Of a DNA stretch of 16,387 nt, positions 2,077 through 16,387 are shown piece by piece (position 1 is the first letter of the stretch; the number at the start of each line of letters is the position of its first letter). A model generated the notes under the pieces. It made no database searches and was not told the origin of the DNA. It worked only from the letters and a program-made list of their open reading frames with translations. Both the position numbers and the translations under genes were made by a program. Origin of the DNA: a virus. Taxonomy: Duplodnaviria > Heunggongvirae > Uroviricota > Caudoviricetes. The stretch lies in IMG/VR virus record IMGVR_UViG_2711768071_000023; one strand, written 5' to 3'.

Positions 2077-2100
2077 TCGGGAATATCAACCAGTTACCGC
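2077..2100. repeat. 24-bp direct repeat, copy 2 (TCGGGAATATCAACCAGTTACCGC), spans the stop codon of the terminal island gene
   Basis: One mismatch relative to 1933-1956; includes the TAA (2094-2096, minus strand) of the 97-aa ORF. Confidence 0.7.
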
Positions 2101-2387
2101 CGCAACCGCTCCGGCTTCTTCCAGTGGTAAGTAATTTTTTCTTTCTCCTGGAACATCTCCACGCGGCGACGATATGACAACAACTCCAGAACTCTGGTGC
2201 GTATATTGCGTATATCCACGCCGTTAAGCTCGATACCGTCACGGCGCATCACCTCAGCCACCACACGCGCGTAATTTTCGGCTATCACGCTGTCCGGCTG
2301 CGTGGCCTCCTGTTTGCCTGCTTCCTGGCTGATTCCGGTAACGCGGCGGATTATTTTTAGTAGTTCGGTTTCGCTCATTCTCGTCAT
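2094..2387 (-). CDS. Hypothetical small basic protein (97 aa), last gene of the packaging operon
   Basis: ATG at 2387 overlaps the terL stop as ATGA (translational coupling). Arg/Lys-rich C-terminus. No family recognised. Confidence 0.6.
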   Translation of the reverse strand: MTRMSETELLKIIRRVTGISQEAGKQEATQPDSVIAENYARVVAEVMRRDGIELNGVDIRNIRTRVLELLSYRRRVEMFQEKEKITYHWKKPERLRR

Positions 2388-4045
2388 ACCCCATCAAACG
2401 CCGCAAGCCGCTCTTTGTGGCTGTCGCTCATATCAAATGCAAATTCCTCATGCTCTGCCTGGAATGTGCCAAACGCCATCAGCGCCGCAACGCTCGGGTC
2501 TATCTTGTTGGATGATTTTTTCTTGTTCGGCTTGATATTGGCGTTCGCGTCACTCTGCATCACAACATTACTCATTGACCAGGCCAGCACCGGATCGCCA
2601 CGATGCACAATCACCTTCCGGTTAACAAAAACTTCGAACGATTTCGCCGCCGGACTGAAACGAAGGTATGTTTGCGGGAACGGCTCCACCTCAAATCCTG
2701 CCCCCTGTAGCTGCGTCCTCAGGTGCGTGGCGTTCCATGTATCGAAGCCCACCAGCCTGATATTGAAATTCTCTGCATCCGCCATGATGTCATCACGGAT
2801 ACGGTCATAATCAATGCAGTCACCCGGTGTTGTGCGTATCCAGCCCGCCTTTACCCACTGGCGATAGATGGCGCGGTTTTTATTGGCGGGGTTCTGTAGC
2901 TGAAATTCCGGCAGATAGTGACGGGAAACCAGCATAATCTTTTTACCGACCGGAAAGGCATAGCACACGCTGGAAATATCGCTGGTTGATGATAAGTCCA
3001 GCCCCGCGTAGCACTCCTGCCCGTATAAATCCGCCTCCGCGAACGTTCCGGCGCACTCCGCCCATGCACCGTTACCCATCCACGGCGTAGCCCCCTGACA
3101 CCAGATATTGAATCGCTTGGTGAGCATTTCCACCCACTGCGACGGAATACCCCGCGCTTTCTGGATGGTTGAGGCCAGTTTTTCACGATCGACGGAAACA
3201 TCGATATTGGGATTCGCCTTTATCCACATCGCCGGATCGTCAACCTCGCTTTCATCATCCAGCTCGTAAATCAGCACGAACATGGATTCGTTCACCTCTT
3301 CACCATCCAGTATCTGGCAGCAATAGTCATAGTGTTGTTTACAGGCTGAAACAACGTTGCTCCCCGATGTGGTGATGGCAAATAACAGCCCCTCCGGACG
3401 CGCCCCCATTCCCAGTTCAAGCGCGGAATAAACCCCGTTGTCAGGGTGCAGGTGATATTCATCCACAATGGCAAGACTCGGGTTTGTACCTTCAATGGTT
3501 GCCGCTTTTGCTGCCAGTGGCTTTAACAGGCTGTTGGTTTTCGGGTGTATCACCTTGTGTGCCTGAATATTTACCCGCTTTCGTAACGGTCGGGATAAAA
3601 GGCACATCTGACGCGCATCATCAAACACGATCCGCGCCTGATCACGACTCACGGCGGCGGTGTAAATATCCTGCTGCCCGTTTTCCATAACCAGAAACCA
3701 GTTAGCCAGGATAGCGGCGACCGTGGATTTGGCATTTTTTCGCGGCACTTCAATGAATGCGCTGGTGTATTTGCGCCGTCCGGTGGCCTTAACCTTAAAG
3801 CCCAGGATGCACGCAAAGGCGAACTGCTGCCACGGCTCCAGCTCAATGGGGCTACCGCGCATTGCGCCTTTTACGTGCGGACACACCCTGGAAAAGGCAA
3901 TAAACCGCTCCACGACCTCCGGATCGAACGTGTAAAGGGGGTTTTCAAGGTCAGAAAAATACCGTTTAACGGCCTGTTTCAGTCGTTTACAGGCCGTAAT
4001 TTTGCCGTTTTTTACGCCTTCTGCGTACTCATGCCAGGCGGTCAA
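2384..4045 (-). CDS. terL: Phage terminase large subunit (553 aa)
   Basis: Long ORF whose translation has terminase ATPase and nuclease domain character. Lies directly downstream of terS with a 17-nt overlap. The ORF-track start at 4045 is a TTG codon, so the exact start is uncertain. Confidence 0.88.
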   Translation of the reverse strand: MTAWHEYAEGVKNGKITACKRLKQAVKRYFSDLENPLYTFDPEVVERFIAFSRVCPHVKGAMRGSPIELEPWQQFAFACILGFKVKATGRRKYTSAFIEVPRKNAKSTVAAILANWFLVMENGQQDIYTAAVSRDQARIVFDDARQMCLLSRPLRKRVNIQAHKVIHPKTNSLLKPLAAKAATIEGTNPSLAIVDEYHLHPDNGVYSALELGMGARPEGLLFAITTSGSNVVSACKQHYDYCCQILDGEEVNESMFVLIYELDDESEVDDPAMWIKANPNIDVSVDREKLASTIQKARGIPSQWVEMLTKRFNIWCQGATPWMGNGAWAECAGTFAEADLYGQECYAGLDLSSTSDISSVCYAFPVGKKIMLVSRHYLPEFQLQNPANKNRAIYRQWVKAGWIRTTPGDCIDYDRIRDDIMADAENFNIRLVGFDTWNATHLRTQLQGAGFEVEPFPQTYLRFSPAAKSFEVFVNRKVIVHRGDPVLAWSMSNVVMQSDANANIKPNKKKSSNKIDPSVAALMAFGTFQAEHEEFAFDMSDSHKERLAAFDGV

Positions 4046-4385
4046 GCTCGTCCTCTTCCTCTGTTTCCGGTGGATTTCTGCGGCGACTTACCGGGTCAAA
4101 ACCCAGCAAAGAAGCCATTTTGATCATTATTCTTTCAGCGTCAGCCTTTGCGCTCAGGGCGGGGTTTCTGCTCTCGCTGCCCTGACTGTTAACAATGCTG
4201 AACCCGCGCGTGGCAAGGTCTTCGACGGCTTTGCGGTATATGGAGTAGTTAACACAATACAGCTCCAGATTGCTCCAGTCGGCGGGGGTAAGGTCTTCCC
4301 GTCCGGAAAGCTGGCGCGATTTTTCCTTCCACTGCCTGACCGCGATTTCATCCAGGTAAGCGGGGGCTTTTGGTGGTCTTGCCAT
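4029..4385 (-). CDS. terS: Phage terminase small subunit, P27 family (118 aa)
   Basis: Internal ATG at 4385 gives MARPPKAPAYLDE... with the conserved P27-family pattern (W..L...G.LT.AD...LE.YC..Y, C-terminal GF.P.SRRR). The 47 upstream codons of the track ORF look non-coding. Confidence 0.85.
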   Translation of the reverse strand: MARPPKAPAYLDEIAVRQWKEKSRQLSGREDLTPADWSNLELYCVNYSIYRKAVEDLATRGFSIVNSQGSESRNPALSAKADAERIMIKMASLLGFDPVSRRRNPPETEEEDELDRLA

Positions 4386-4673
4386 GTTCTTTTTTCGCCC
4401 AATTATTTTCAAAAAAATTCCCGTGCACAAAAATTTGAGGAGGCGGTCGGTGTCCGGCAGGGACGGTTTCGTCCTGAAAACCACCCCCACCCCCTCTGAC
4501 GGCCTCACCAGCGATTGCGAAAACATTCCATGACCTCGCGGTCACGGTCGGTTAATTGCTTCGCTGTGGTGCGTTCTGTGCGCCCTGTCCTGTTGGCTTT
4601 GTGCCCTGTCTCCTGTGTCTTCCATAAGTCACGCTGCCTTATCAGTCCACGTATCAGCCTGGTTTGCTCCTGT
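4386..4673. other. Candidate cos / terminase-recognition region between HNH and terS
   Basis: 288-bp gap in an otherwise overlapping operon. Contains a GC-rich run CCACCCCCACCCCC (4481-4494), short hairpin 4458-4476, and direct repeats TGTGCGCCCTGTC / TGTGCCCTGTC (4577-4589, 4600-4610). HNH-cos-terS is the usual arrangement in HK97-like cos phages. Confidence 0.35.
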
Positions 4674-5114
4674 TCAGTCATCATCGCCATACATCCAGTC
4701 GTTACGGTGTGCTGCCCGTTCTTCCTGCTCGCGATACATGCCCGCCTTACGGTTCGCTTTCGTGGCTGGATCTTCCCGTGTCGTCTTACGGTTGTGGCAC
4801 GTCTGGCACAATGCCTGGTGGTTCCACTCAGGCCAGAAGAGAACATCACCGCCGCCATTGATGGGGATGATGTGATCCACCACAAGAGCTGGCGTATAAA
4901 TCCCCTTAGCCAGACAACGCACGCATAACGGGTTTTTGCTCAGGTACAGGGCGCGGTATTTGTCCCACTGTCGGGAATACCCGCGCGCGCGGCGGTGTCC
5001 CCGTCTGGCATCCTCTGCACGCCATACAGCCCGTCTGTGCTCTTCACACTTGCCGGACTTCACGCGCTTATTACAGCCCGGCTCAGTGCATCGCCTTAAT
5101 GGTTGCCACGGCAT
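4674..5114 (-). CDS. HNH endonuclease, packaging-associated (146 aa)
   Basis: Cys-rich N-terminus (CTEPGCNKRVKSGKCEEH) and HNH core (VVDHIIPINGGGD ... NHQALCQTCHNRKT). ATG at 5114 overlaps the connector stop by 1 nt. Preceded by SD GGGGGTG. Confidence 0.85.
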   Translation of the reverse strand: MPWQPLRRCTEPGCNKRVKSGKCEEHRRAVWRAEDARRGHRRARGYSRQWDKYRALYLSKNPLCVRCLAKGIYTPALVVDHIIPINGGGDVLFWPEWNHQALCQTCHNRKTTREDPATKANRKAGMYREQEERAAHRNDWMYGDDD

Positions 5115-5416
5115 CAGTACACCCCCACATCACGATAAACCGACCAGAGCGCAGAAATAGCCATAGGCAGTTCAGACTGCTCCACTGGTGAAACTGCTTC
5201 CCTGTTCTCGTACAGGAAAGCGATGTACATCAGGCAACCAACACGCATTGCCGGGGTAAATTCCAGCCCGTCTTCAAAACGTTTCCCGATATGCTTCTGG
5301 CAGGCTTCCAGCGCCGCATCGGTATACATTTTCAGAAGTTCGCCTTCACCGGATAAATCATCATCAAGTCGAAGATGTGCCCTGACTTCATCAGGTGTAA
5401 TTCTGGCTTCACTCAT
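5114..5416 (-). CDS. gp6-like head-tail connector / DNA-packaging protein (100 aa)
   Basis: Internal ATG at 5416 with strong SD AAGGGAG. Small acidic protein with the pattern typical of gp6-like head-tail connectors. Overlaps the portal stop by 8 nt. Confidence 0.65.
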   Translation of the reverse strand: MSEARITPDEVRAHLRLDDDLSGEGELLKMYTDAALEACQKHIGKRFEDGLEFTPAMRVGCLMYIAFLYENREAVSPVEQSELPMAISALWSVYRDVGVY

Positions 5417-6623
5417 CTTTTCTCCCTTTAATTTCCACAGTCTGTTTCCATGCCTGGCTGAACTCATCACCACCTTCACGCGGCGGCATACCCTCGCGTT
5501 CGCGAGCTTCGTTCGGATTCATGATCCCGCTCTTAATCCCTTTCTCATACGTGGCATAACGTTCGGTGGGTGTGGCGCGCAGTAAATCGGCTGAATCAAA
5601 CTCAACCAGATAACGGGTACCAGGTACGGGAGAAGTCACCAGCAAAGCGGCCTTGATTTGCTGTTCGAAGTTCGCCAGCCACGGGCGCATTGTCATGGTC
5701 AGAAATGCGCGGCTCGCCTCACTGAAATTGCTGTAGGTGCTGTTGCTGTATTCCTGAAGAAAAATCGGCGACACGTTGAACATCCTGGCGATGTCTTCAA
5801 TGGAGAAGCGACGGGAGGCCAGCCATTCCGCATCCTGGTTACTCATCCCCAGCTGCCTGTAATCCATGCCCCCTTCAAGGATTGGCGTTTTTCCGGCATT
5901 TTTCGCCCCCTTGTAGCGTTCCAGTGCGTCTAATGCCTGTTTACCTTTCACGCCGTCCAGCCATTCACCTGACGTGATAATCCCTGCCGCCATCATGCCA
6001 TCTTTCATAATGCTGGCTCCGTGACGCTGTTGAGCAAGGCCAAGCCCCAGCGCCTCACGGCAAATCGTGACGGGGGAACGCCCCAGAAAGCCATCATCCG
6101 AGGCATAGCGGAGATGCAGAACTTCTTCCTGTAAATACGTGCGCACCGTTCCTGTACAGGGTTCGGTGATGGTATAGCGGTATTTGTGTGTGCCTGTGCG
6201 TTCCGGTACAACACACCCCGGCGCATAAGGATGAAGTGATTTTGGCTGCCCGTCCCGCCCCCACTCAATAACCGCATAGGCGTTACCGTTCAGCAGGCAG
6301 TGACGCATCATTGTGCGTTTAAACTGGTAAGGTGTCAGGCACGAATTAGGCTGCTCATTCAGCAGAATATCTACCGGGTGACTGTCCAGCCATTCCCGCG
6401 CCTCTCTGCCCTTATCATTGCGTACCAGATACAGGTAACACGGCATCGTGGCCACCGCCTCAGCGATGACAGAAACCGCGTTCATCACAGCAGGCAATGA
6501 TTCAGCCGTCCCGGCAGAAACATATTCTCCGGATCCGGTATTTGGTACACCAGACAACGCCAGAAAATCATCAATGGACAGGTTACGCAGATCGCTTTTT
6601 TTACGACTAAAAGGCCACCACAT
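5409..6623 (-). CDS. Phage portal protein, HK97-like (404 aa)
   Basis: Internal ATG at 6623 (MWWPFSRKKSDL...). Size and sequence character typical of HK97-family portals. Lies between protease and connector. Confidence 0.88.
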   Translation of the reverse strand: MWWPFSRKKSDLRNLSIDDFLALSGVPNTGSGEYVSAGTAESLPAVMNAVSVIAEAVATMPCYLYLVRNDKGREAREWLDSHPVDILLNEQPNSCLTPYQFKRTMMRHCLLNGNAYAVIEWGRDGQPKSLHPYAPGCVVPERTGTHKYRYTITEPCTGTVRTYLQEEVLHLRYASDDGFLGRSPVTICREALGLGLAQQRHGASIMKDGMMAAGIITSGEWLDGVKGKQALDALERYKGAKNAGKTPILEGGMDYRQLGMSNQDAEWLASRRFSIEDIARMFNVSPIFLQEYSNSTYSNFSEASRAFLTMTMRPWLANFEQQIKAALLVTSPVPGTRYLVEFDSADLLRATPTERYATYEKGIKSGIMNPNEAREREGMPPREGGDEFSQAWKQTVEIKGRKDE

Positions 6624-6624
6624 A

Positions 6625-7185
6625 TCACAACCCCGCCAGTTCAGCCCAGCGATGACGATTATTTCCTGCCGGGCGTAATTCAGGGTACTGTGCAAACAAC
6701 GAACGGTGGGCAATCTCCACGCCGGATTCGGGATAAGCAGGCATCGATGTTATCGTGATTTCACGGAGTTCTGCTGCGGTTACAGTACGCAGATACGGTT
6801 TTTGCGCGATATTCCACTCCTCGCATAATGCGCGAAAGCCAAAGCTCATTCCTGTAATATCGCCACGTTCCACCAGCGTAAGCACATCTTTTCCAAGCTG
6901 GGTATTTGGCGGTGTCAGTTCAAAACGTAGCCCGGTGTTATCCTCAGTCAGTACCAGTGAGCCGGATTTGGTACGCCCCAGCAGTTGGGTATAGTCATGC
7001 TCATACAGACAGCGCACATCATTACCTGCCGCCAGATAGTCAGCAAAAGCCCCCGGCGTGAACTGTTCGCGAAACTCGTCCCAGATAATTTCTGAAAGGC
7101 TGTTCCAGCGAACGGCATAACCCACCAGTTTTTTATCGCTGGCGGTCAGTTCAGATGTACGGATTTCAAAATCGGTGTTTTTCAT
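6625..7185 (-). CDS. Prohead protease, HK97 family (186 aa)
   Basis: Internal ATG at 7185 (MKNTDFEIRTSE...) with SD GGAG. Translation resembles HK97-type prohead proteases (GYAVRWN..., ...GMSFGF...). Stop lies immediately upstream of the portal start. Confidence 0.85.
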   Translation of the reverse strand: MKNTDFEIRTSELTASDKKLVGYAVRWNSLSEIIWDEFREQFTPGAFADYLAAGNDVRCLYEHDYTQLLGRTKSGSLVLTEDNTGLRFELTPPNTQLGKDVLTLVERGDITGMSFGFRALCEEWNIAQKPYLRTVTAAELREITITSMPAYPESGVEIAHRSLFAQYPELRPAGNNRHRWAELAGL

Positions 7186-7234
7186 CGGTGTACTCCATAA
7201 AGCTGAAAAAGGAGGCCGAAGCCCCCTTTGCTCA

Positions 7235-8380
7235 TTACTTGCCAGCCTGAATTTCCAGAATCTTGATGGCGTTCGAATCCACCACACCACCGCCCAGATA
7301 TTTCTGGGTATAGATGTTAATGAATCCAGGCTCGCTGAAATCCGGACGGGTACGCGTACCGGTTTTATGGTCAACGATGAAATAACCGCGCTTAAAGTCA
7401 CCGACTGCAATCACACCGTCCGGCATAAATTCCAGATATTCAACCGGAAGCCCCAGCAGAGAATCAGGATCACCAGCCTGTAAACGATCGCGCCAGATGT
7501 AATCACCAGTGGCATTTTTCAGTTTTTGTGCGGAGGCGGCTGTATTTGAGTTCATCACCCATACAGCTTTTTTGCGGTACTTATTGCGCAGCGTAAATTT
7601 CAGGTCAATCAGCATATCGGCGCTGAGACTGCCAGTCACTTTTTTCGTCTGGAGCGTACCGAAAGGACGGGTTTTGTCATTATCCGTAGTGCGCGGGAAA
7701 GTCAGGAAACCTTTGGCTTTTTTCTCGCCATCACCGGAAACCAGATCCGTTTCTTCGGTATCAACGAAAGTGTCGCCAATTTCAGAAGATAACCAGCCCA
7801 TAATATCGACTTCGGAAAAATCGATAATTTCCTGAGTGGTTTTCGGGTAAGCGTAGATCGGATACAGGCGGATACTGACTTCATTCAGTTTTGGGGTTGC
7901 CGTCTGGTTACGTGCCGCACCTTCTTCGCCGTGTCCCACGACCGCACCCCCGGCAGAAACCAGTTGCTTAAATTCATTACTGTGAATGGTTTTAACAGTA
8001 CAGATTTTACGCATCACCGACTCATCAGAAAGCTGACGCATAATTTCTCTGTTCAGTTCCGGGATAACCGTATAACCACCATCAGCCGGGACACTGCCGG
8101 ACAGGTTGCGGGTTTCCCCGGTCAGAATGTAAGAGCGTAGTTCGTCTTTGGTGATTTTCTCTTCGACGGAAACACCTGGCTGGTTACGTTCTTCATCCGC
8201 AACAGCTTCAAGACGGGAGATTTCTGTGTCGAGGGAATCGGCTTTTGCACGCAGTTCATCAAACTGTTTGCCTTCGTCATCGTTCAGGCTGCGGTTTTCA
8301 CTGTCGGCTTTTTCCAGCAGGGATCGCATCTGGTTTTTCAGGGCGGTTTTTTGCTGGCGGAGTTCGATTAATTTCTTCAT
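7235..8380 (-). CDS. Major capsid protein, HK97 fold with N-terminal delta domain (381 aa)
   Basis: ATG at 8380. First ~100 residues are a coiled-coil-like scaffold segment (LRQQKTALKNQMRSLLEKA... LDTEISRLEAV) followed by an HK97-type capsid body. Confidence 0.9.
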   Translation of the reverse strand: MKKLIELRQQKTALKNQMRSLLEKADSENRSLNDDEGKQFDELRAKADSLDTEISRLEAVADEERNQPGVSVEEKITKDELRSYILTGETRNLSGSVPADGGYTVIPELNREIMRQLSDESVMRKICTVKTIHSNEFKQLVSAGGAVVGHGEEGAARNQTATPKLNEVSIRLYPIYAYPKTTQEIIDFSEVDIMGWLSSEIGDTFVDTEETDLVSGDGEKKAKGFLTFPRTTDNDKTRPFGTLQTKKVTGSLSADMLIDLKFTLRNKYRKKAVWVMNSNTAASAQKLKNATGDYIWRDRLQAGDPDSLLGLPVEYLEFMPDGVIAVGDFKRGYFIVDHKTGTRTRPDFSEPGFINIYTQKYLGGGVVDSNAIKILEIQAGK

Positions 8381-8573
8381 GAAGGTTTTCTCGTATTGGT
8401 TAAGATTCAGGACGTGAAACCAACACGGAGGGAGCGCCGCCCGACACTCTCGGCATCTCGCAGATCAACCCGGCATCGCGCAGGGGGTCAGGCGGCATTG
8501 TGGCGGCTCACGTCTGAGTGCCACACGCCAACATATACATAAAAATCAGTATGTAAACATCAGCCAGAATCAC

Positions 8574-8602
8574 CGAACAACCTGGAACAACCACGAACAA
8601 AT
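8574..8602 (-). promoter_or_regulatory. Three 10-bp-phased TTGTTC repeats upstream of the capsid operon
   Basis: Plus strand reads cGAACAAcc tgGAACAAcc acGAACAAat, i.e. TTGTTC x3 on the coding (minus) strand at exact 10-bp spacing. Sits just downstream of the 8615-8644 terminator and about 190 bp upstream of the capsid ATG. Confidence 0.45.
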
Positions 8603-8614
8603 AATTTACAAAAC

Positions 8615-8644
8615 CTGAAAAAAGGCCCGGAAAAAATCCGGGCC
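8615..8644 (-). terminator. Intrinsic terminator after the replication/accessory operon
   Basis: Perfect 8-bp stem GGCCCGGA / TCCGGGCC (8624-8631, 8637-8644) with a 5-nt loop, followed on the minus strand by TTTTTTC. Lies 10 bp past the stop of the 8654-8902 ORF. Confidence 0.7.
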
Positions 8645-8653
8645 TTTATCGCT

Positions 8654-8902
8654 TTATTGTTTCACTGGCTCCCGCATTCTGCGTCTTATTTTCCACAAAT
8701 ATTCGATCATCGCTTCCACCTGCTCACGGTTGGTTGCGAAAATTTCCCCGGTCAGTGAGCTACGCAGAAAATCATGATGATCCACAAAAAATAACGCATC
8801 GGAAGAAAGCAACCGACGATATTTTTTTGCTGTCGTGGTTTCCAGATCATCAAAACCATGAAGCTTTTTATGTTGCTGAACTTCTTCAAATGTCACTGGC
8901 AT
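8654..8902 (-). CDS. Hypothetical protein (82 aa)
   Basis: ATG at 8902 with strong SD AAGGGGGAT. Overlaps the stop of the ProQ/FinO-like gene by 10 nt. No family recognised. Confidence 0.5.
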   Translation of the reverse strand: MPVTFEEVQQHKKLHGFDDLETTTAKKYRRLLSSDALFFVDHHDFLRSSLTGEIFATNREQVEAMIEYLWKIRRRMREPVKQ

Positions 8903-9423
8903 GTATCCCCCTTTGCTGCCCGGCGCTGGCGCTTGTGCTTCTCATTCAGCACCATCAGCCGTGTTTCTGCCTCCTGCTGTTCCTGTGGTGTCACTTCCCC
9001 ACATGGCTGGCCTTTCAGATCGTAACGTGCGCCACCAGCTATCAGGGCGCGGTAATAGCGCGGAGACTGCGCATAGGATGCCAGCGTCGCACGTAATACC
9101 CCCGGCCCGAATGCCAGCCCCCTGACGGCGATATCCTGCATCAGGTCGTCGAATATCCCCACCTTAAGCGGCTTCGGTGCTTTATGGCTGAATAAGTCAG
9201 GCCACATCTCAGTGAGGCGGTTAACGCGTCGGCGGTTTTTGCGCTGCCTTTTGGTCATATGCTGCCACGGTGTCGCCCCTGTGGGCTTCTGCTGTGCGTT
9301 CTGATTGCCGGGTATCACTTTATGCGCCGATGTGGTTTTATCCTGCTCTTGCGCCGCCTGCGTCGTTTTCTGCGGCGTGCCGTAAATGCCTTTCGGCTTC
9401 CGGTTAATGGTCAGCGTTGTCAT
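8893..9423 (-). CDS. ProQ/FinO-domain RNA-binding protein (176 aa)
   Basis: C-terminal two-thirds aligns by eye with the ProQ N-terminal FinO-like domain (PLKVGIFDDL ... LRATLASYAQSPRYYRALIAGGARYDLKGQPCGEVT vs ProQ PLKIGIFQDL ... [35 protein letters not shown]). SD GGGGAAGG precedes the ATG at 9423. Confidence 0.8.
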   Translation of the reverse strand: MTTLTINRKPKGIYGTPQKTTQAAQEQDKTTSAHKVIPGNQNAQQKPTGATPWQHMTKRQRKNRRRVNRLTEMWPDLFSHKAPKPLKVGIFDDLMQDIAVRGLAFGPGVLRATLASYAQSPRYYRALIAGGARYDLKGQPCGEVTPQEQQEAETRLMVLNEKHKRQRRAAKGDTCQ

Positions 9424-9459
9424 GCCTTCCCCTGTAATTACTCTGTTCGCTGTTGTGAA

Positions 9460-9885
9460 TTAAAACGGTATGTTATCCCCGTACGGGTCATCGTGCTGGC
9501 TTGTCTGTTGTTTTGCCCTGTTCAGTGCGTCAGTGGCCTGGCCCTGTTGACCTTTTTTGCCGCCCGGTCGCGCCGTTCGCGCACTGATTACGCTGTCTGC
9601 AATAACCTGCCAGCCCTGCCGCGTTTCCCCGTTCTGGCCTGTCCACTGGCTCACCTGCATGTTACCCGCCACGCTCACCAGTTCGCCTTTGTGGTGTTTT
9701 GCCAGTGCGTCGGCCTGTCTGCCAAACGCCAGGACAGATAACCACATCGTCGCCGTTCCGTCATCTGCCTGGCTGCACGGCAGGGGAACCGCCATACTCG
9801 CCATCGCCATTTGTGTCCCTTTGCTGGTGGTCTTTAACTGCGGGTCAGCCACCAGCCGCCCGTAAGCCGCTATCTGTGCTGTCAT
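9460..9885 (-). CDS. ssb: Single-stranded DNA-binding protein (141 aa)
   Basis: OB-fold pattern comparable to bacterial SSB (GRLVADPQLK..., WLSVLAFGRQADALAKHHKGELVSVAGNMQVSQWTGQNGETR) and an acidic C-terminal tip ...DDPYGDNIPF resembling the SSB DDDIPF tail. ATGA overlap with the upstream ORF. Confidence 0.75.
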   Translation of the reverse strand: MTAQIAAYGRLVADPQLKTTSKGTQMAMASMAVPLPCSQADDGTATMWLSVLAFGRQADALAKHHKGELVSVAGNMQVSQWTGQNGETRQGWQVIADSVISARTARPGGKKGQQGQATDALNRAKQQTSQHDDPYGDNIPF

Positions 9886-10127: not shown

Positions 10128-10178
10128 AGGCTTTACCTCACAGCAATAAAATAAAATTTTTGCATTTTAACCCTTCAC

Positions 10179-10401
10179 CTGTTCACCTTTTGAGATTTTC
10201 CCTTTTTATTCATAATGTTAAGGGGTGAACAGTTTCACAAAAACTATTCACCAACTGTTCACCACTGTTCACCCTTAAAGCTCAATAAATAATCAAAAAG
10301 GTGAACAGTGAATAGTTTGGTGAACAGTTCACAAATAACTGTTCACCCTATAATGTACTGATATAAAAGATATTTATAACAGGGTGAACAGTGGTGAACA
10401 G
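10179..10401. repeat. Iteron cluster, candidate replication origin
   Basis: Nine perfect copies of GGTGAACAG in both orientations (GGTGAACAG at 10224, 10300, 10319, 10383, 10393; CTGTTCACC at 10179, 10255, 10265, 10339) plus degenerate copies, several pairs at 10-bp phasing. An AT-rich stretch (10350-10380) is embedded. Lies immediately 3' of the primase-helicase gene. Confidence 0.75.
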
Positions 10402-10414
10402 TTATTCCATAAGT

Positions 10415-12229
10415 TTAATTTTTGCTGTCGTCATTTGTGACCGATGCACATGATGGCATACAGTCTTCTGAATCCTCTGTCAGTGTCACATTTGAACGCA
10501 AACCGTGCTTCGTTTTCCGTTTTATATACTCCCTGCCATATTCCGCCATTGCCCCCGGCATATCTTTACCGAAGCGCGTCAGTGTTACAGGTTTACCGAA
10601 TCCGTGTGCCCTCATATATGCCAGATAGGCGTGATAAAGATACCTGCGCGGACTGAACGGAATAATTTCGGCATTACCCACTAACAGACCATCACACATT
10701 ACCGACGACATGAGATAGCCACAGAAGTCCACCAGCGAATCGCCCTCGCGTTTTATCACCAGAGCTTCTTCTGATTTCTGCTGCTCATACAGCAGGCGTT
10801 TAGCTTCGTCCTGGTCAGAAAAACGAGTAAGCAGATGGCGAATCACAACCGCCAGCTCTCCTTCTATTTTTTCTGCCAGCATGGGGTCGCGCTCGTTCTC
10901 CGGTACAACCTCCGAAAAATTGAATATCACCCGACGACGTGAGATCCCCCCGCTGCGGTCACTGAATGACATGGCGTTATTGTTCACCGCCAGCACGACC
11001 GCCTGAATGCGTGTTGAGTAGGGGGCTTTATGCTTCGGGTCGATTGCCACCTTGTCACCGCCTGTAATGGCCTTAATTCCTGCGCCATCACCAGCGTAGC
11101 GGGTCATATCCGGCATGATAATCAGCGAAAAGCCAACCACTAACGCGCGTTCCCTTGCATCTTCCAGCGCCTTCATGCTTGCCGATACTGTGTTGGCCTT
11201 ACCCGCCAGCATAGTGCAAATCTCCGCCATCACGCTTTTACCACTTCCCCCTGGACCTGTTACCTCAATGAATAACTGCCAGTCGTACCGGTTCGCCAGC
11301 ACCATGAATAATGCAGCCAGCACGCGATCCGTCTTGCGGTCATTCTCTGCCACCGAGCAGCGTAACCACTTCCAGAAATTCGGCGCATGTGTTGCCAGCG
11401 TTTCCCCCTCTGCTGGTGGGCTGAAAGGTAATTCACTGGCAATTAACAACCAGTCGTTTTTGTTATGCTCCCGAAAATTACCTGTTCTGGTATCAAATAC
11501 CCCGTTACTGAATCCAATCAGGTTACGGGCTGTATTCCCCATTACAGGCAAACTTAACTTCATGGTATCGACCGCCGATTTAATGGCGTTCTGCGAATAG
11601 CTGATCTCCGCATCAATGAAAATCTGCGCCATAGCACGCTGTAACTCTTTATCCTGAATCGGCTCCCATACAACGCCGTTGTAATGGTGAACAGTGTCAG
11701 AGTCGGCATGAATCGCCAGTTCACCGCCATAATGTGCCAGGAGAACTTCGCCGCGCTGGCTTGCTCCCATCTGGTTAAGCGCCAGTGGTGCGGCGCTGTC
11801 TTCTGTTTTTTTCTTAACAGGAAGCTGAATCACCAGACCATCAGAAAGATTCTGGCGCTCACGGGCCAGATATTCGCGCCAGTTCTGCACCTCCTGACCG
11901 TGCATACCCTCAGGATAAAAATTTGCATCCTGTACGCCTGCCGCCGCCAGCTTCTGACCAATCGCCTTTATCATTACTGGCGCAAGATATCCGGCCCTGA
12001 ATATGCGCACGGATTTTCTGCCTTCCGGCACAATTTGCAGCTTATCCAGTTCGGATAACTGCTGCTCCCCAAGCCACACAGGAGGCTCATTATCTCCGGC
12101 CATACGCGCGTCATGTTCCTGCCATTGTTTTGCGTGTGACCAGGCATCACTACCCGCAAAAATAATGACTTCTGTTTCTTTGTGTTTTATGCCGCGTGAC
12201 TGCTGTTTTACGTTCGGTGCCAGTTTCAT
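10415..12229 (-). CDS. Replication initiator primase-helicase, P4-alpha/D5-like (604 aa)
   Basis: Walker A motif GPGGSGKS and downstream helicase-like region in the C-terminal half. Strong SD AGGGGGT. Position next to the iteron origin matches a pri-rep gene. Confidence 0.85.
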   Translation of the reverse strand: MKLAPNVKQQSRGIKHKETEVIIFAGSDAWSHAKQWQEHDARMAGDNEPPVWLGEQQLSELDKLQIVPEGRKSVRIFRAGYLAPVMIKAIGQKLAAAGVQDANFYPEGMHGQEVQNWREYLARERQNLSDGLVIQLPVKKKTEDSAAPLALNQMGASQRGEVLLAHYGGELAIHADSDTVHHYNGVVWEPIQDKELQRAMAQIFIDAEISYSQNAIKSAVDTMKLSLPVMGNTARNLIGFSNGVFDTRTGNFREHNKNDWLLIASELPFSPPAEGETLATHAPNFWKWLRCSVAENDRKTDRVLAALFMVLANRYDWQLFIEVTGPGGSGKSVMAEICTMLAGKANTVSASMKALEDARERALVVGFSLIIMPDMTRYAGDGAGIKAITGGDKVAIDPKHKAPYSTRIQAVVLAVNNNAMSFSDRSGGISRRRVIFNFSEVVPENERDPMLAEKIEGELAVVIRHLLTRFSDQDEAKRLLYEQQKSEEALVIKREGDSLVDFCGYLMSSVMCDGLLVGNAEIIPFSPRRYLYHAYLAYMRAHGFGKPVTLTRFGKDMPGAMAEYGREYIKRKTKHGLRSNVTLTEDSEDCMPSCASVTNDDSKN

Positions 12230-12513
12230 TTTTTACCCCCTGCGACCAGCATTTCACGAATTTTGCGGATATGACTTGCTGCACGTTTCTGATTTACGGC
12301 TTTACGATGGCCCACCAGCGTGAAATCACGCCGGAACTGATAAACAGGCATCACGCAGTCATATTCGTAGCCATCACGGCGGTAAGTGATGCGCCGTTCT
12401 GCCACGCCTTTTATCGTTACCGTGCCGCCATAGTTATCCCGGAAAATATCGCCGGGGCGGATTTCAGGCCGAGCGGGGCCGCTGGCAGTAAAGCCAGAAT
12501 TTTTCTTTTTCAT
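12226..12513 (-). CDS. Hypothetical protein (95 aa)
   Basis: ATG at 12513. Stop overlaps the primase start as ATGA. No family recognised. Confidence 0.5.
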   Translation of the reverse strand: MKKKNSGFTASGPARPEIRPGDIFRDNYGGTVTIKGVAERRITYRRDGYEYDCVMPVYQFRRDFTLVGHRKAVNQKRAASHIRKIREMLVAGGKK

Positions 12514-12519
12514 GTTTTT

Positions 12520-13543: not shown

Positions 13544-13849
13544 ATGTCCAGGAGTTCTGTTAACAATAAGTCACAGCAACTGAATGCCAGATTTCCACAT
13601 GAAGTAGTGAGTGGCATTGAGGCATCCCTACAGCCAGGGGAAACTAAAGCGAATTTTATAGTTACGGCTGTACGCGGTGAGATCGCCCGGCGCCAGGCAG
13701 AAGGAAGTGGAGAAAATCCCCTGGTTTCTTCGCTCGATGCACTGGCGCAGGTGGAAAAACTCGGAATCAAAGCCGCCGAGGAGATCGGGCAGCTCGTCAC
13801 TGTCGCACGTGAAGAACTCCAGCGCCGCAAGACCAAAGAACCAGAGTAA
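13544..13849 (+). CDS. Ribbon-helix-helix (Arc/MetJ-type) DNA-binding protein, candidate island repressor (101 aa)
   Basis: ATG at 13544 preceded by GGGAGGTG at 5-nt spacing. N-terminus QQLNARFPHEVVSGIEAS...ANFIVTAVRGEIARRQ fits the RHH beta-strand plus two-helix pattern. One of only two credible plus-strand genes inside the element. Confidence 0.6.
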   Translation: MSRSSVNNKSQQLNARFPHEVVSGIEASLQPGETKANFIVTAVRGEIARRQAEGSGENPLVSSLDALAQVEKLGIKAAEEIGQLVTVAREELQRRKTKEPE

Positions 13850-13906
13850 TCACCATCAGCGCCGTGGTGTAAGGTATTACGGCGCATTGCTATGCAGGAC
13901 AACACA

Positions 13907-14080
13907 ATGACCGATAAAGAATTGACCAAAACATTATCACCGGCACGGAAAAGACGGCGCAGAAAGATAGAGCATGAATCAGAAAGATTCGCGCCATGTG
14001 CTTTTGCCCTTGAGCAATTCCTTAAAGAGTACAGGGAAAAGCGCTCATTGCAGGTATGGCAACGAACTGAACCAGACTGA
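13907..14080 (+). CDS. Possible small basic protein (57 aa)
   Basis: ATG at 13907 (MTDKELTK...) in the same transcriptional direction as the RHH gene. Weak SD. No family recognised. Confidence 0.3.
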   Translation: MTDKELTKTLSPARKRRRRKIEHESERFAPCAFALEQFLKEYREKRSLQVWQRTEPD

Positions 14081-14256
14081 TTGCATTGCCCACCAGCCGC
14101 AAATGTGGCATTGTTGGCAATGCTCATGCGTTGGGGATAACGTGTAGCTTGTGTCGAGGGGCCACCGTAGCGGGTGGCCTTTGTTTTGCCCGTTATTCGG
14201 CAATTGTGGCGCTTCTCCACATGGTTGATATAATCCCACTGCTCAGATTCATTTTT

Positions 14257-14556
14257 TGCGCAGTAGGTTAATTGTTCACAAAGGCGCTCCGGCAACGGGG
14301 CGCTTTTTGTTTTTATTAGTTTGTAGAAACCTGACTCAGAGATAATGCTCATATTCTGATTGCCGTCAGGGGTGTAAGTTAAATTTACTCCCTTTTTATC
14401 ATCAAACATCTGCAACGCTCTGGCGTTAACAATATTGGTTTCACTCCCGCCAGTAAGGCCGGAAATAACCGGAATAATTTCGGCAAAATTTTGCAGATTC
14501 TGTTTTTCAGGACGAACGAAGCCCCGCCCTTGTTCGGGAGAATATCCAGTATTCAT
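14257..14556 (-). other. Possible coding segment: N-terminal ~100 codons of the 473-codon ORF, 3' end unresolved
   Basis: ATG at 14556, 52 bp downstream of alpA. Residues ~60-90 (TPDGNQNMSIISESGFYKLIKTKSAP) resemble the core of Bro-N-type domains. The frame has no stop until 13135 and runs antisense through the RHH gene and the 14284-14314 terminator. Confidence 0.3.
14284..14314 (+). terminator. Intrinsic terminator on the plus strand
   Basis: Stem GCGCTCCG / CGGGGCGC (14284-14291, 14296-14303; 7 Watson-Crick pairs plus 1 GU) with GCAA tetraloop, followed by TTTTTGTTTTT (14304-14314). Confidence 0.6.
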
Positions 14557-14608: not shown

Positions 14609-14797
14609 TTAGTGAACTGCCTCGCAGCTGTCCTTCCATGCCAGAACTTCGGATAAAGACCAGCCAACGGAACGACCGCCCAGCTTACGCCGTGATGGGA
14701 ATTGTCCGGCTTTTTCCAGGCGGTACCGACATGAGCGGCTCAGGCCTGTAAGTTGCTGACATTCTTTTTCACGTATAAAGCGATCTGTGCTTAACAC
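14609..14797 (-). CDS. alpA: AlpA-family transcriptional regulator (62 aa), GTG start
   Basis: Translation MLSTDRFIREKECQQLTGLSRSCRYRLEKAGQFPSRRKLGGRSVGWSLSEVLAWK matches the AlpA family HTH pattern. GTG start at 14797 preceded by AAGGGGGAA. Confidence 0.8.
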   Translation of the reverse strand: MLSTDRFIREKECQQLTGLSRSCRYRLEKAGQFPSRRKLGGRSVGWSLSEVLAWKDSCEAVH

Positions 14798-15157: not shown

Positions 15158-16387
15158 TTATATTTCTCTGGCTATTGGCAATGTGGTTACGTTTTCATGT
15201 GTTCCCGCCAGTATCCCTAACCGCTCCGTCCACATATCCAGCGCGTCACGTTTCGCATCCAGATAACGGGAATGGTTATAGACTCGTTGCATCCCTGGCA
15301 TCTGATGACCTGTAAGCTGCTCCACGACGTGAGGATCCACGCCTAAATCGTTCAGCATCGTTGTAAAGGTGCGCCGGATGTCATGCAGTGACCAGTGAGG
15401 GTGTTTTAGCCTCCTGTGCGCTAATCTGCCGTACTGCGACACGCTTGTTTCCTGTTTCACTTCCCCCAGCAATAAGCCCGTGTGCCTGTTCTGCTCCACC
15501 AGCTGCGTGACGAACGGCAGTATTGCTTCCGGTATGGGCCGGAATATTGCCACCTTCGTTTTGCTGTGTTCTTTCGGCACGGTCCAGAGCATTTCGGTAA
15601 AATCCCACTCGCTGATCTCCGATAACCTCAGTTCTACCGTCCGGCATCCGAAAACAATCAGGAGGCGGATTAGTGCGACGTAGTAAGGGGAAAATATTTT
15701 TTTGTCCAGTGCCTGCAATAATTCGCCAAGTTCTTTGGTGCTTAAGACACGCTCGCTTATATCCGGTTTTTTCCCAACGTCCGCCACACTCATATCATCA
15801 AGAACGTTGCTGATTGCATAGCGCCGCCTCCGGCAGAACTTAAGCGCCTGTTTGCACGTCTGTAGCAAGAATCCGGCAGTAACAGGCGTTCGCTTTGCCA
15901 CCTGGTCAAAACAGGCCAGCCAGTGCCGTAGCTCGCATTTATCCAGCGGCATAGCACCAATGTGCTGTATTACGTGATTATTAAGGCGCTTTTTCAGGGC
16001 GGCATAATCCACGCGGTTTTCCTTTACGTAAGACTCAAGCCAGTAGGTAAGCGCATCGCCAACCGTTACGGGCTTTAACGCTTTCTGTACGGTGTAATTC
16101 ATCTCATGACGTGGATTTTTCCCCTCAGCAAGCCAAGCGCGACACTGTGCCGCTTTTTCCCTGGCAGCTTTCAGACTCAGATCAGGATAATTTCCCAGCT
16201 TAATCCGTTCCGGTCGTGCTCCCCTTCCCGTTCCGGCCCTGTAGGTGAAATACCAGGTTAAAAGGCCGCTGGTTGAATGCCTGACGCTCAGGTTTCCACC
16301 GTCATTAAGAAAGGCTGTTTTTTGGGCGGGTGTGCCGTTGATTTTCCTCAGCTGTGTATCGCTCAGTTTGTTAAGTGCTCTGCTCAT
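15158..16387 (-). CDS. int: Tyrosine integrase, P4 type (409 aa)
   Basis: ATG is the last three bases of the window; stop TAA at 15158-15160. N-terminal arm-binding-type region (LSDTQLRK..., GLLTWYFTYRAG...) and C-terminal catalytic region with HDIRRT and a tyrosine near the C-terminus. Transcribed inward, so its att site lies beyond 16387. Confidence 0.9.
   Translation of the reverse strand: MSRALNKLSDTQLRKINGTPAQKTAFLNDGGNLSVRHSTSGLLTWYFTYRAGTGRGARPERIKLGNYPDLSLKAAREKAAQCRAWLAEGKNPRHEMNYTVQKALKPVTVGDALTYWLESYVKENRVDYAALKKRLNNHVIQHIGAMPLDKCELRHWLACFDQVAKRTPVTAGFLLQTCKQALKFCRRRRYAISNVLDDMSVADVGKKPDISERVLSTKELGELLQALDKKIFSPYYVALIRLLIVFGCRTVELRLSEISEWDFTEMLWTVPKEHSKTKVAIFRPIPEAILPFVTQLVEQNRHTGLLLGEVKQETSVSQYGRLAHRRLKHPHWSLHDIRRTFTTMLNDLGVDPHVVEQLTGHQMPGMQRVYNHSRYLDAKRDALDMWTERLGILAGTHENVTTLPIAREI

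Follow-up and report, generated by a model that had tools for sequence, protein, structure and literature searches.

On mobile elements, FinO-domain proteins have known roles in the control of conjugation (FinO) and of plasmid copy number (FopA and PcnR). FinO, FopA and PcnR are the characterised mobile-element members of the family, and all of them target RNAs of their own element (PMC9977716). FopA (IncI1 pCol1B9) and PcnR (IncI2) act on replication-initiator leader RNAs and repress plasmid replication via the repZ/repA leaders (PMC9977716). Every characterised FinO domain is an RNA binder that works via 3′-OH and 2′-OH contacts (PMC9674577; PMC3105414), and its target is a generic structure, a hairpin with a 3′ tail (PMC9674577, PMC9977716). 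ProQ requires K35, R58, Y70 and R80 for RNA binding (PMC7192607), while RocC grips the 3′ nucleotide via R75, Y87, R97 and G52 (PMC9674577). In FinO, duplexing and strand exchange are conferred by the disordered N-terminal region, the start of the long helix and Trp36 (PMC3105414). N-terminal extensions are thought to give the plasmid FinO-like proteins their specificity, and co-resident FinO, FopA and ProQ have nearly separate ligand sets in Salmonella (PMC9977716).

In the literature searched, we found no phage-satellite ProQ/FinO protein as an object of study. A ProQ/FinO-like ORF is mentioned in the Enterobacter cloacae PICI AVS0889 (PMC13612085, 2026), and a ProQ/FinO-like gene is mentioned in Vibrio cf-PISP satellite-plasmids (PMC13230959, 2026). 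Both are annotation-level accessory or maintenance listings without analysis of function, target or distribution, and we liken them to the gene described here by description only.

The FinO-type gene lies in a capsid-forming PICI

We analysed a DNA stretch of 16,387 nucleotides (the window), which is an E. coli capsid-forming PICI (cf-PICI; family definition from PMC10085698) at the phoQ/roxA site. The following features frame the island.

2094..8380, minus strand: capsid/packaging module with HK97 capsid, S78 protease, portal, head-tail connector, HNH, small ORF, TerS and TerL
14609..14797, minus strand: alpA, head of the operon and master activator of PICI induction (Pfam Phage_AlpA, E=3e-18)
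15158..16387, minus strand: tyrosine integrase at the roxA-proximal island end, 98% identical to the EcCIEDL933 integrase

The initial annotation had taken the element for a satellite, and this proved right. The prototype EcCIEDL933 occupies the same phoQ/roxA site, and the island is collinear with it; the identities are 98% for int, 94% for alpA, 93% for TerL, 80% for portal and 75% for capsid. The packaging module, in which a 97-aa ORF trails TerL, is collinear with that of EcCIEDL933 at 56-93% amino-acid identity, and 538 of 5426 E. coli genomes have a related packaging module. A RefSeq island (L001) is 99.4% identical over window positions 1-12520. The L001 annotation has no tail or lysis genes from phoQ to roxA, and no tail or holin/lysis genes were found among the Pfam, NCBIfam and PHROG matches of the window. 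The head-closure protein of EcCIEDL933 gave no tblastn match in the window and is missing in an intact relative (L020) too. The island would be an incomplete 'Type B'-like cf-PICI variant in the scheme of PMC10085698, because the second head-tail joining component (head closure/adaptor) is absent.

The 176-aa protein is a ProQ/FinO-family member with FinO-like architecture

The protein and its parts map to the window as follows.

8893..9423, minus strand: CDS of the FinO-type protein, 176 aa, pI 10.3 (ORF, translation, Pfam, AlphaFold2/Foldseek, RefSeq identity)
9382..9423, minus strand: N-terminal motif MTTLTINRKPKGIY (LT[IL]xRKxxG), codons 1-14, common to the F-plasmid FinO N-terminus
9274..9381, minus strand: Gln/Thr/Lys-rich variable linker, codons 15-50, predicted disordered
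8914..9273, minus strand: basic N-terminal helix (58-73) followed by the FinO domain, together codons 51-170 (AlphaFold2 pLDDT, Pfam)
Within the FinO domain: helices 90-101, 107-118 and 121-129, beta-hairpin 132-143 and helix 146-171 (AlphaFold2)

The ORF has an ATG start and a TGA stop, and its translation holds both motifs (PLKVGIFDDL and GQPCGEV) from which a FinO/ProQ-like domain had been proposed. An HMM domain search bears the proposal out. Pfam PF04352 (ProQ/FinO) matched residues 64-168 with E=1.2e-23 and 83.5 bits, far over the cut-off of 27 bits, covering model positions 5-108 of 109. By sequence, the protein also matched the solved structures of the ProQ NTD (5nb9, 1e-11), FinO (1dvo, 9e-11), NMB1681 and RocC. 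The AlphaFold2 model was confident for residues 51-170 (pLDDT 76-95), with helices at 58-73, 90-101, 107-118, 121-129 and 146-171 and strands at 132-134 and 140-143. It thereby shows the FinO fold of about five helices and a two-stranded beta-hairpin arranged as a bowl. When this model was compared with the PDB by Foldseek, the best 26 matches were all FinO-domain structures. The protein is 100% identical to RefSeq WP_000209991.1, a 'ProQ/FINO family protein'. Thus, it is a genuine member of the ProQ/FinO family, and RNA binding is predicted for it.

We compared its architecture with those of the described members. The protein ends 8 residues past the last domain helix and so has no C-terminal domain. 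This, together with the N-terminal motif, linker and basic helix, makes the architecture FinO-like rather than ProQ-like. F-like plasmid FinO (PDB 1dvo; NCBIfam NF010317) has in common with it the LT[IL]xRKxxG motif, the disordered basic region and the FinO domain, and both proteins have a long basic helix after a Trp, have no C-terminal domain and are encoded on mobile elements. Their folds match with a Foldseek rmsd of 2.1 Å over 102 columns. However, sequence identity is merely 25-29%, and the NCBIfam FinO subfamily model scored 65.5 bits against a cut-off of 136, so the satellite protein is not FinO proper. The host of FinO is a conjugative plasmid, whereas that of the 176-aa protein is a phage satellite; no tra genes, finP or traJ were found in the island.

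Enterobacterial ProQ (PDB 5nb9; NCBIfam NF003434) has the same domain, and its K35, R58, Y70 and R80 are conserved in the satellite protein. In comparison, ProQ has a linker and a Tudor-like C-terminal domain, both absent here, and its FinO domain is N-terminal instead of C-terminal. The NCBIfam ProQ model scored 58.4 bits against a cut-off of 127, so the protein is not ProQ proper either; proQ is a core gene, while the satellite gene is horizontally mobile and patchy. The best structural matches (3mw6, 7rgt and 7rgu; target-normalised TM-score 0.6-0.83) were RocC of Legionella and NMB1681, the minimal ProQ of Neisseria. Their 3′-nucleotide pocket Tyr, Arg and Gly are conserved in the satellite protein, but both are chromosomally encoded regulators from other bacterial classes, and their extensions differ.

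The initial annotation had described a Gln/Thr/Lys-rich N-terminal extension of roughly 70 residues. Its composition agrees with our count of 11 Thr, 9 Gln and 8 Lys in the first 63 residues (net charge +9), whereas its length was slightly overestimated. With pLDDT below 50 at residues 1-3 and 10-50, most of residues 1-50 is predicted to be disordered, and the linker columns are variable and carry indels in the family alignments. The motif at the very N-terminus is different. L4, T5, I6, R8 and K9 show at least 90% conservation across 45 homologues, the motif aligns with VLTLKRKTEG of FinO and with other FinO-branch proteins, and its dN/dS was 0.02-0.09 in 5 of 7 pairs, over 12 codons only. 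Trp53 precedes the basic helix in the window allele and in most homologues.

The predicted RNA 3′-end pocket is conserved, and the gene is under purifying selection

In the alignment, K87, R111, Y123, R133, G89, D135 and G138 correspond to ProQ K35, R58, Y70, R80, G37, D82 and G85, and Y123, R133, G89 and R111 to RocC Y87, R97, G52 and R75. These four positions and K87 are either invariant or conserved to at least 90% among the homologues (45 sequences). Both the family's 3′-nucleotide pocket (Tyr, Arg and the turn Gly) and its helix-alpha5 Arg, a contact to hairpin phosphates, are present. The predicted pocket for the 3′ nucleotide and the lower stem of a terminator-like hairpin is conserved (K87, G89, R111, Y123 and R133). 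The ligand class is likely that of ProQ, namely intrinsic terminators flanked by A-rich 5′ and U-rich 3′ sequence. Two substitutions stand out. The N-cap Ser (RocC Ser70, ProQ Ser53) aligns to Gly106, with residue 107 as the first of the modelled helix; Gly106 is at least 90% conserved in the satellite subfamily but departs from the family consensus. Glycine is able to cap a helix. ProQ K54 is replaced by Pro107, which, like Gly106, counts against the explanation that we favour below.

Against seven homologues, the whole-gene dN/dS was 0.18-0.37. The gene is therefore under purifying selection, far beyond chance. This value bears on the idea that the gene descends from a captured plasmid finO-like gene and survives only as a decaying remnant without function. 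The erosion of integrated FinO-like genes is on record (PMC9977716), and two copies of the present family (L015 and L016) are frameshifted or split, the L016 copy being frameshifted among the sampled copies. However, the window ORF is intact, the N-terminal motif and RNA pocket are conserved along with the low dN/dS, the gene has an RBS of its own and an overlap with its downstream neighbour, and full-length copies number in the hundreds. All 20 listed subfamily records (H48-H67) are annotated ProQ/FINO, and most are not marked as pseudogenes. A remnant is thus scarcely credible.

The gene is an optional single-gene cassette

The FinO gene is an optional single-gene cassette and not a satellite core function. 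It is absent from EcCIEDL933, L020 and L021, and EcCIEDL933, which has known lambdoid helpers, was fully functional in experiments (10.1101/2022.09.08.507074). Its slot lies between ssb and a small downstream ORF (ORF82). In EcCIEDL933, this slot holds PerC and no FinO homologue; in L020, whose packaging module is 96% identical, ssb leads directly to ORF82 without proQ. Compared to L020, proQ is an exact single-gene insertion of about 560 bp. The inserted cassette consists of the ORF only, with no companion sRNA gene; a cognate RNA that travels with it could therefore only be one embedded in the ORF. The ORF82-proQ-ssb block occurs in about 25 genomes, against the 538 with a related packaging module.

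The wider family is found in 1094 of 5426 complete E. coli genomes (about 20%), with up to 8 copies per genome. Its carriers are PICIs, including classical ones with different primases, and CP4-like/pathogenicity islands. Its presence in such unrelated island types argues against a target peculiar to cf-PICIs. A contig profile search with the family alignment added two loci only, in E. ruysiae and E. albertii, too few for comparative RNA analysis. PADLOC found no defence-system match for the FinO protein and its neighbours.

The arrangement around the slot varies. In L001 and L004-L008, ssb is followed by proQ, and in L009/L010 PerC stands between them. An obligate ssb-proQ pair is ruled out by L013, which has proQ without ssb, and by L020, which has ssb without proQ. 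The recurrent position of the FinO gene beside or near ssb could nevertheless point to a role other than RNA binding, in which the protein acts with SSB on single-stranded or hairpin DNA in island replication or packaging. The protein is strongly basic (pI 10.3), and the FinO/ProQ family has, through its targets, repeatedly been tied to DNA metabolism (PMC9977716). As the ssb linkage is not obligatory, and as the characterised FinO domains all bind RNA and the matching pocket residues are kept here, we find such a role highly improbable.

The slot also raises the question of where the protein would act. PerC-family PICI regulators are seen as host-directed accessory genes that act on host loci (PMC11773190), and the FinO gene alternates with PerC or adjoins it in the same slot. 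The common slot favours an alternative in which the FinO-type protein, in analogy to the PerC-type regulators, is regulatory cargo that works in trans on helper-phage or host RNAs. Such a protein could stabilise phage RNAs of the antisense or terminator-bearing kind, sequester them, or vie with chromosomal ProQ for ligands, to the benefit of the satellite or with host reprogramming as the outcome. A single-gene cassette without a companion RNA, spread over several unrelated island types, fits such cargo, as do the generic hairpin and 3′ tail that FinO domains recognise (PMC9674577, PMC9977716) and the prophage and island RNAs already within the ProQ regulon. On the other hand, FinO-type N-terminal extensions go with narrow specificity, the three ligand sets in Salmonella are nearly separate (PMC9977716), and no candidate helper or host target was identified. 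If expression depends on AlpA only, the protein would be absent in the uninduced lysogen, which would limit host reprogramming. Weighing these points, we consider trans-acting cargo unlikely, though by no means far-fetched.

The gene lies in a probable early/replication operon

The neighbourhood on the operon strand, and the convergent module opposite to it, are as follows.

8616..8648, minus strand: intrinsic terminator, AAAGGCCCGG-AUUUU-UCCGGGCCUUUUUU, closing the early/replication transcription unit
8654..8902, minus strand: ORF82 (82 aa), phrog_1957, no assigned function, with its ATG within the last FinO-gene codons
9460..9885, minus strand: ssb, 141 aa, tail ...DNIPF, directly upstream of the FinO gene (Pfam SSB, E=4e-16; TIGR00621)
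10194..10416, no strand assigned: AT-rich palindromic iteron field with GGTGAACAG units (repeats D6, D7, I1, I2, I6, I15, I17 and I18)
10415..12513, minus strand: DUF4222 leader-like ORF (12226-12513) overlapping the P4/D5-type primase-helicase gene (10415-12229)
13544..14315, plus strand: convergent module antisense to the early operon, with a ylcI/ynfO-like gene, ORF62 and two tandem terminators
14159-14188 and 14280-14315, plus strand: the tandem terminators of the ylcI/ORF62 module

The placement of the FinO gene between ssb and a small unassigned gene, as given in the initial annotation, was confirmed, and its membership in the early operon was supported. The gene runs in the same direction as alpA, primase and ssb, and from alpA to the end of ORF82 the operon strand showed no clean single-hairpin terminator. 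The overlap with ORF82 is 10 nt. ORF82 is 40% identical to the gene just upstream of the EcCIEDL933 capsid gene. The primase region matched Pfam DUF4222, D5_N, DUF5906 and Pox_D5 as well as TIGR01613, and the iteron field is the probable replication origin of the island.

The terminator that closes the unit lies 248 nt past the FinO-gene stop codon. Its fold (-24.6 kcal/mol, z=-4.7) was equalled in stability by 0 of 200 shuffles, and similar terminators lie 20-640 nt downstream of proQ in L004, L008 and L009. It is a candidate FinO-domain ligand.

This neighbourhood invites a comparison with FopA and PcnR, likewise small FinO-domain proteins on mobile elements, which we liken to the satellite protein by description and not by sequence. 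In parallel with them, the satellite gene sits within a replication module, near the ori-like iterons, primase and ssb, and the DUF4222 ORF overlaps the primase start in the fashion of a leader ORF. A copy-number controller in the FopA/PcnR style would bind a stem-loop or antisense RNA at the DUF4222 leader and hold back primase translation, which would keep island replication in check. The repression of replication through repZ/repA leaders by FopA and PcnR (PMC9977716) is a precedent for this, and the Vibrio satellite-plasmid gene is grouped with maintenance functions (PMC13230959). However, the plasmids of FopA and PcnR use RepZ/RepA, whereas the island uses a primase-helicase, and EcCIEDL933 and L020-type relatives replicate without the FinO gene. 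The gene is found with two unrelated primase types (D5/P4 and DUF927), and CP4-like islands have no annotated primase beside it. An Inc-like antisense RNA was not found in the island. The sole antisense hairpin near the DUF4222 start (12482-12497) is weak and has no convincing promoter. Copy-number control of this kind is therefore improbable.

Proposed role and significance

Our best explanation, towards which we lean by a little more than even chance, is that the optional cassette encodes a FinO-type protein that acts chiefly on island RNAs and tunes early/replication expression. AlpA would switch the island on after helper-phage infection, and the FinO-type protein would then be made, a timing that we read from gene order alone. 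The protein would bind RNAs ending in a hairpin and U-tail, and its flexible N-terminus, as in FinO, would stabilise such RNAs or pair them with complementary transcripts. The likeliest substrates would be transcripts of the island itself, with two candidates: the terminator on which the FinO gene's own operon ends, and the region where the early operon overlaps the convergent plus-strand ylcI-like transcript, which has two terminators at its end. The outcome would be tuned early/replication gene expression, with the gene dispensable for the satellite life cycle.

A bolder reading makes the RNA chaperone a weapon or a tuner, which captures helper or host regulatory RNAs (for example, lambdoid antisense RNAs or ProQ-dependent sRNAs) or pairs island antisense with the early operon; either mode would time satellite replication against helper development. 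We regard it as rather unlikely. If true, it would be the first RNA-chaperone-based post-transcriptional layer in satellite biology, and a plug-in cassette across PICIs and other islands in about one-fifth of E. coli genomes.

The novelty implied by the initial annotation was too high, since a RefSeq annotation exists, about 20% of E. coli genomes carry the family, passing mentions preceded this work and the cassette is optional. What we describe is a well-supported annotation in a known family and not a new mechanism or kind of system. The subfamily pairs an RNA 3′-end pocket with a FinO-type N-terminal module, which serves matchmaking in FinO, and moves as a clean cassette. If specific RNA targets exist, they would add a post-transcriptional layer to PICI/cf-PICI regulation. 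Many E. coli strains would then have one or more extra FinO-domain proteins beside ProQ, plus FinO where an F-like plasmid is present, which bears on ligand partitioning among co-resident FinO-domain proteins.

Candidate RNA partners in the window

We searched the window for RNA partners. No known sRNA was found over the whole window with Rfam at E<=1, which speaks against the role that we favour. Rfam matches to plant and animal miRNA precursors at 10194-10374 were artefacts of the palindromic iteron field, and a single weak match to RsaJ was likewise rejected as an artefact. Plus-strand antisense RNAs in or near proQ were considered at three hairpins (9231-9248, 9483-9551 and 8824-8873). All three are weak and were put down to chance: they have stems of 5-8 bp, their T-runs are short or complementary to Lys/Arg codons, and they lack promoters upstream. 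The hairpin at 12482-12497, opposite the DUF4222 start, was also rejected; its stem is a weak 5 bp, and the MKKKN codons on the other strand account for the T-run after it. As a structured target, the capsid 5′ leader (8375-8530) was dismissed, its fold being not significant (z=-1.6).

The plus-strand ylcI/ORF62 module is a candidate natural antisense partner, whose link to the FinO-type protein we only infer. The ylcI-like gene, with or without ORF62, is found in FinO-positive PICIs wherever the region was captured. However, ORF62 is 100% identical in the FinO-negative EcCIEDL933, and the module is therefore not diagnostic of the FinO gene. The plus-strand terminator at 14280-14315 was considered as that of a dedicated sRNA and rejected, since L004-L007 show it to be primarily an mRNA terminator; the homologous hairpin region there lies between convergent bro-N and small antisense genes. 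A TGATATAAT element, conserved in L001, lies 45 nt upstream of this terminator and leaves a putative RNA of about 70 nt possible.

Identity of the FinO-domain protein

The FinO gene (8893-9423, minus strand) is an ATG-to-TGA ORF of 176 residues, and its translation contains both motifs quoted in the initial annotation. The ProQ/FinO domain proposed there was recovered as Pfam PF04352 over residues 64-168 (E=1.2e-23; 83.5 bits vs a cut-off of 27), and the Gln/Thr/Lys-rich N-terminus is equally evident, with 11 Thr, 9 Gln and 8 Lys within the first 63 residues. The pI of the full-length protein is 10.3. Searching solved structures by sequence, we retrieved the ProQ N-terminal domain (5nb9, 1e-11), FinO (1dvo, 9e-11), NMB1681 and RocC. 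An AlphaFold2 model built with 45 homologues was confident for residues 51-170 (pLDDT 76-95), while residues 1-3 and 10-50 (pLDDT <50) are predicted to be disordered. When this model was compared with the PDB by Foldseek, the top 26 structures were all FinO-domain structures (26/26), including RocC with a bound terminator. The ProQ/FinO-domain observation is confirmed, far beyond chance.

The protein lacks the ProQ-type linker and Tudor-like C-terminal domain, and its NCBIfam scores fall far under the cut-offs for FinO (65.5 vs 136) and ProQ (58.4 vs 127). Thus, it is a family member with FinO architecture and an orthologue of neither FinO nor ProQ.

The RNA pocket and the N-terminal module are conserved

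We mapped the RNA-binding residues through a HMMER alignment to E. coli ProQ. Mutagenesis showed that ProQ K35, R58, Y70 and R80 are needed for RNA binding, and a random screen added G37, D82 and G85 (PMC7192607). In the RocC-RocR crystal structure, R75, Y87, R97 and G52 grip the terminal nucleotide and the hairpin phosphates (PMC9674577). The seven ProQ positions, in the order named, correspond to K87, R111, Y123, R133, G89, D135 and G138. When 18 and 45 homologues were aligned, all seven showed complete or at least 90% conservation. Two positions are off-consensus, namely Pro107 (ProQ K54) and Gly106 (the N-cap Ser).

Residues 1-14 (MTTLTINRKPKGIY) are near-invariant. For comparison, we reconstructed full-length FinO from an IncF plasmid; F-plasmid FinO opens with the same motif, VLTLKRKTEG, which also starts many other FinO-branch proteins. 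In the island protein, a variable linker, W53 and a strongly basic helix come after the motif, and most homologues likewise carry a Trp before this helix. W53 is comparable to Trp36 at the tip of the N-terminal helix of F-plasmid FinO. For RNA duplexing and strand exchange, FinO needs its disordered N-terminus, Trp36 and the first part of the long helix, while the globular domain only binds (PMC3105414).

Across the whole FinO gene, dN/dS was 0.18-0.37, and most comparisons gave 0.02-0.09 for the 12 codons of the N-terminal motif. The gene is under purifying selection though optional; that it is a non-functional remnant is extremely improbable. On IncF plasmid p4592 (NZ_CP095539.1), a frameshift separates the N-terminal region of finO from its FinO domain (L011, the p4592 locus, 1380-1953), and PLSDB lists no gene for this split finO.

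The FinO gene lies in the early operon of a cf-PICI

The window starts inside phoQ and continues as an island of the capsid-forming PICI (cf-PICI) type with the following features.

15158-16387, minus strand: int
14609-14797, minus strand: alpA
between alpA and DUF4222, minus strand: Icd-like small genes
12226-12513, minus strand: DUF4222 gene, overlapping the primase-helicase gene
10415-12229, minus strand: P4/D5-type primase-helicase gene
10194-10416, between the primase stop and ORF81: AT-rich iteron palindrome with direct and inverted GGTGAACAG(T) units
8648-8616, minus strand: canonical intrinsic terminator directly after ORF82, with an 11-bp stem, A/U extensions and a U6 tail
8557-8530, minus strand: promoter-like site after the terminator, with the capsid gene next

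EcCIEDL933, the prototype cf-PICI in EDL933, occupies the same phoQ/roxA site and is collinear with the window (identities: int 98%, AlpA 94%, TerL 93%, TerS 88%, portal 80%, capsid 75%). The element is therefore a cf-PICI (10.1101/2022.09.08.507074, PMC10085698), in agreement with the earlier assignment to a satellite. A RefSeq genome (L001, NZ_AP022261.1) carries, between phoQ and roxA, a copy without tail or lysis genes that is 99.4% identical to window positions 1-12520.

The iteron field at 10194-10416 is probably the island replication origin; it yields spurious Rfam miRNA-precursor matches. It is followed on the minus strand by ORF81, ssb, the FinO gene, ORF82 and the terminator, so the gene lies between ssb and a small gene as first described. 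The FinO gene starts 36 nt past the ssb stop with its own Shine-Dalgarno sequence, and the ORF82 ATG lies within its last codons (10-nt overlap). As only ORF82 separates it from the terminator (-24.6 kcal/mol, z=-4.7), the FinO gene is the penultimate cistron of the transcription unit with alpA, primase and ssb. A DNA- or SSB-related role for this neighbour of ssb is very improbable. In other islands, a terminator lies 20-640 nt past proQ, or past proQ plus one gene.

We also noted minor features of the island. The head-closure gene of EcCIEDL933 (EDL933 locus L017, 11104-11442) has no counterpart in the window or in an intact relative (L020), and 5114-5479 is the sole head-tail joining gene of the island. 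For L001 (6533-9686), RefSeq lists TerS, portal and protease as pseudogenes with frameshifts. Each of portal and protease gave one single-frame tblastn match in the window, covering nearly the whole EcCIEDL933 protein, and TerS matched residues 1-106 of 118; the window copies therefore look intact. GTTGT-rich arrays at 1583-1613 and 15094-15124, near both island ends, are inverted and 71% complementary over 31 nt, and a similar array (8571-8600) immediately precedes the putative capsid promoter. These may serve as arm-type sites for the integrase or be bound by an island regulator. Two adjoining, overlapping small genes (12728-12940 and 12933-13142, minus strand), both phrog_340 (E about 1e-20 to 1e-23), form a tandem duplication in the early region beside an Icd-like gene.

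The FinO gene is an optional single-gene cassette

In EcCIEDL933, whose induction, replication, packaging and transfer were demonstrated experimentally (10.1101/2022.09.08.507074), the stretch from ssb to the ORF82 homologue contains a gene of the PerC family and lacks a FinO homologue. In L020, whose packaging module is 96% identical to that of the window, ssb runs straight to ORF82, and a further locus (L021) likewise lacks the FinO gene. Related packaging modules occur in 538 genomes, vs about 25 for the ORF82-proQ-ssb-ORF81 block. Aligning the junctions with L020, we find a precise insertion of ~560 bp that separates the ORF82 start from the ssb stop and contains a ribosome-binding site and the FinO ORF and nothing else. 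The 3' end of the ORF runs into the pre-existing ORF82 ribosome-binding site, from which the C-terminal residues of this allele are translated, and the ORF82 start-codon position reads ATG in the window and ATT in L020 (8893-8912, 9424-9459; L020 11580-11660). Thus, the FinO gene is an optional single-gene cassette and does not belong to the satellite core functions.

Distribution and prior descriptions

The protein had 298 matches in a large protein database; those with an organism label were from Escherichia, Shigella, Salmonella or Citrobacter, and those with a product label were ProQ/FINO family protein or the older 'ProP effector' or 'activator of ProP'. In a library clustered at 50% identity, the FinO superfamily gave 2148 matches, with 9 close clusters (E<=1e-30). 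By blastn, the FinO gene alone was found in 1094 of 5426 complete E. coli genomes; its 1513 places, as many as 8 in one genome, all lie on chromosomes. Of the matches listed, 40/40 were annotated ProQ/FINO.

Two kinds of genomic context were found. Islands of the PICI type, some with a capsid module and others lacking one, are arranged as int, alpA, (ant/bro), DUF4222, primase (D5 or DUF927), (ssb), proQ, and in some a PerC-family gene adjoins proQ. The ~75%-identity group lies in CP4-like/pathogenicity islands with inovirus-Gp2-like, AlpA-family, H-NS or afa/dra genes. Among FinO-bearing PICIs, the commonest variant is that of loci L004-L007, whose protein P0046 is listed in about 4000 index blocks. 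Downstream of its FinO gene (10560-17900) are three large genes (600-918 aa) with no Pfam matches, which may be a defence or other cargo system.

The novelty first attached to this gene was overstated. The family has a recognised 'eclectic branch' made up of ProQ/FinO proteins of plasmids, phages and integrated mobile DNA (PMC9977716). This protein already has a name in RefSeq, and such ORFs were mentioned in passing in 2026 in an Enterobacter PICI (PMC13612085) and in Vibrio cf-PICI-like satellite-plasmids (PMC13230959). The gene goes unmentioned in two cf-PICI papers by the describing group and in the SatelliteFinder paper, and the literature searched contained no functional study of a ProQ/FinO gene in a satellite. 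This analysis adds the motif of FinO type at the N-terminus, conservation of the RNA pocket, the status of the gene as a cassette with exact insertion boundaries, its alternation with PerC in one slot, and its frequency in E. coli. Of the initial interpretation, identity and genomic context are supported; the regulatory function is a proposal.

Candidate RNA ligands

A module on the plus strand is convergent on, and antisense to, the early operon (13544-14315).

13544-13849, plus strand: ylcI/ynfO-like gene
13892-14080, plus strand: ORF62, a conserved 62-aa ORF
14159-14188 and 14280-14315, plus strand: tandem intrinsic terminators

In other islands, a compensatory change occurs in the stem of the first of these terminators. 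We somewhat favour a FinO-type RNA binder working mainly on island transcripts. Judging from the family (PMC9674577, PMC3105414, PMC9977716), the FinO domain would clamp a terminator-type hairpin at its base, together with the 3'-OH of the U-tail, and the flexible N-terminus would aid pairing with a complementary RNA, or at least stabilise the bound RNA. One candidate ligand is the terminator of its own operon (8616-8648), where ProQ-like 3' protection would preserve the early/replication mRNA. Another is the 3' ends of the convergent unit, in a FinP/traJ-like geometry. A third, suggested by analogy to the plasmid FinO-like replication repressors PcnR and FopA, is the DUF4222-primase leader; a dedicated replication throttle is improbable. 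Action in trans on helper or host RNAs is possible though unlikely, and gains weight because the cassette has no RNA gene of its own and the same slot is used by PerC-type regulators (PMC11773190).

An extended -10 element, TGATATAAT (14228-14236, plus strand), is kept in L001, and a predicted RNA of roughly 70 nt could run from it to the second terminator. On the opposite strand, a 473-aa ORF (13135-14556) reads without interruption through three unrelated pieces, namely an Ant/Bro-N remnant, a gene homologous to the 247-aa 'hypothetical' gene of EcCIEDL933, and an Icd-like gene. In EDL933 (L017 2170-2913), RefSeq places this 247-aa gene on the sense strand where the antisense 62-aa ORF is 100% identical; therefore, one of the two annotations may be wrong.
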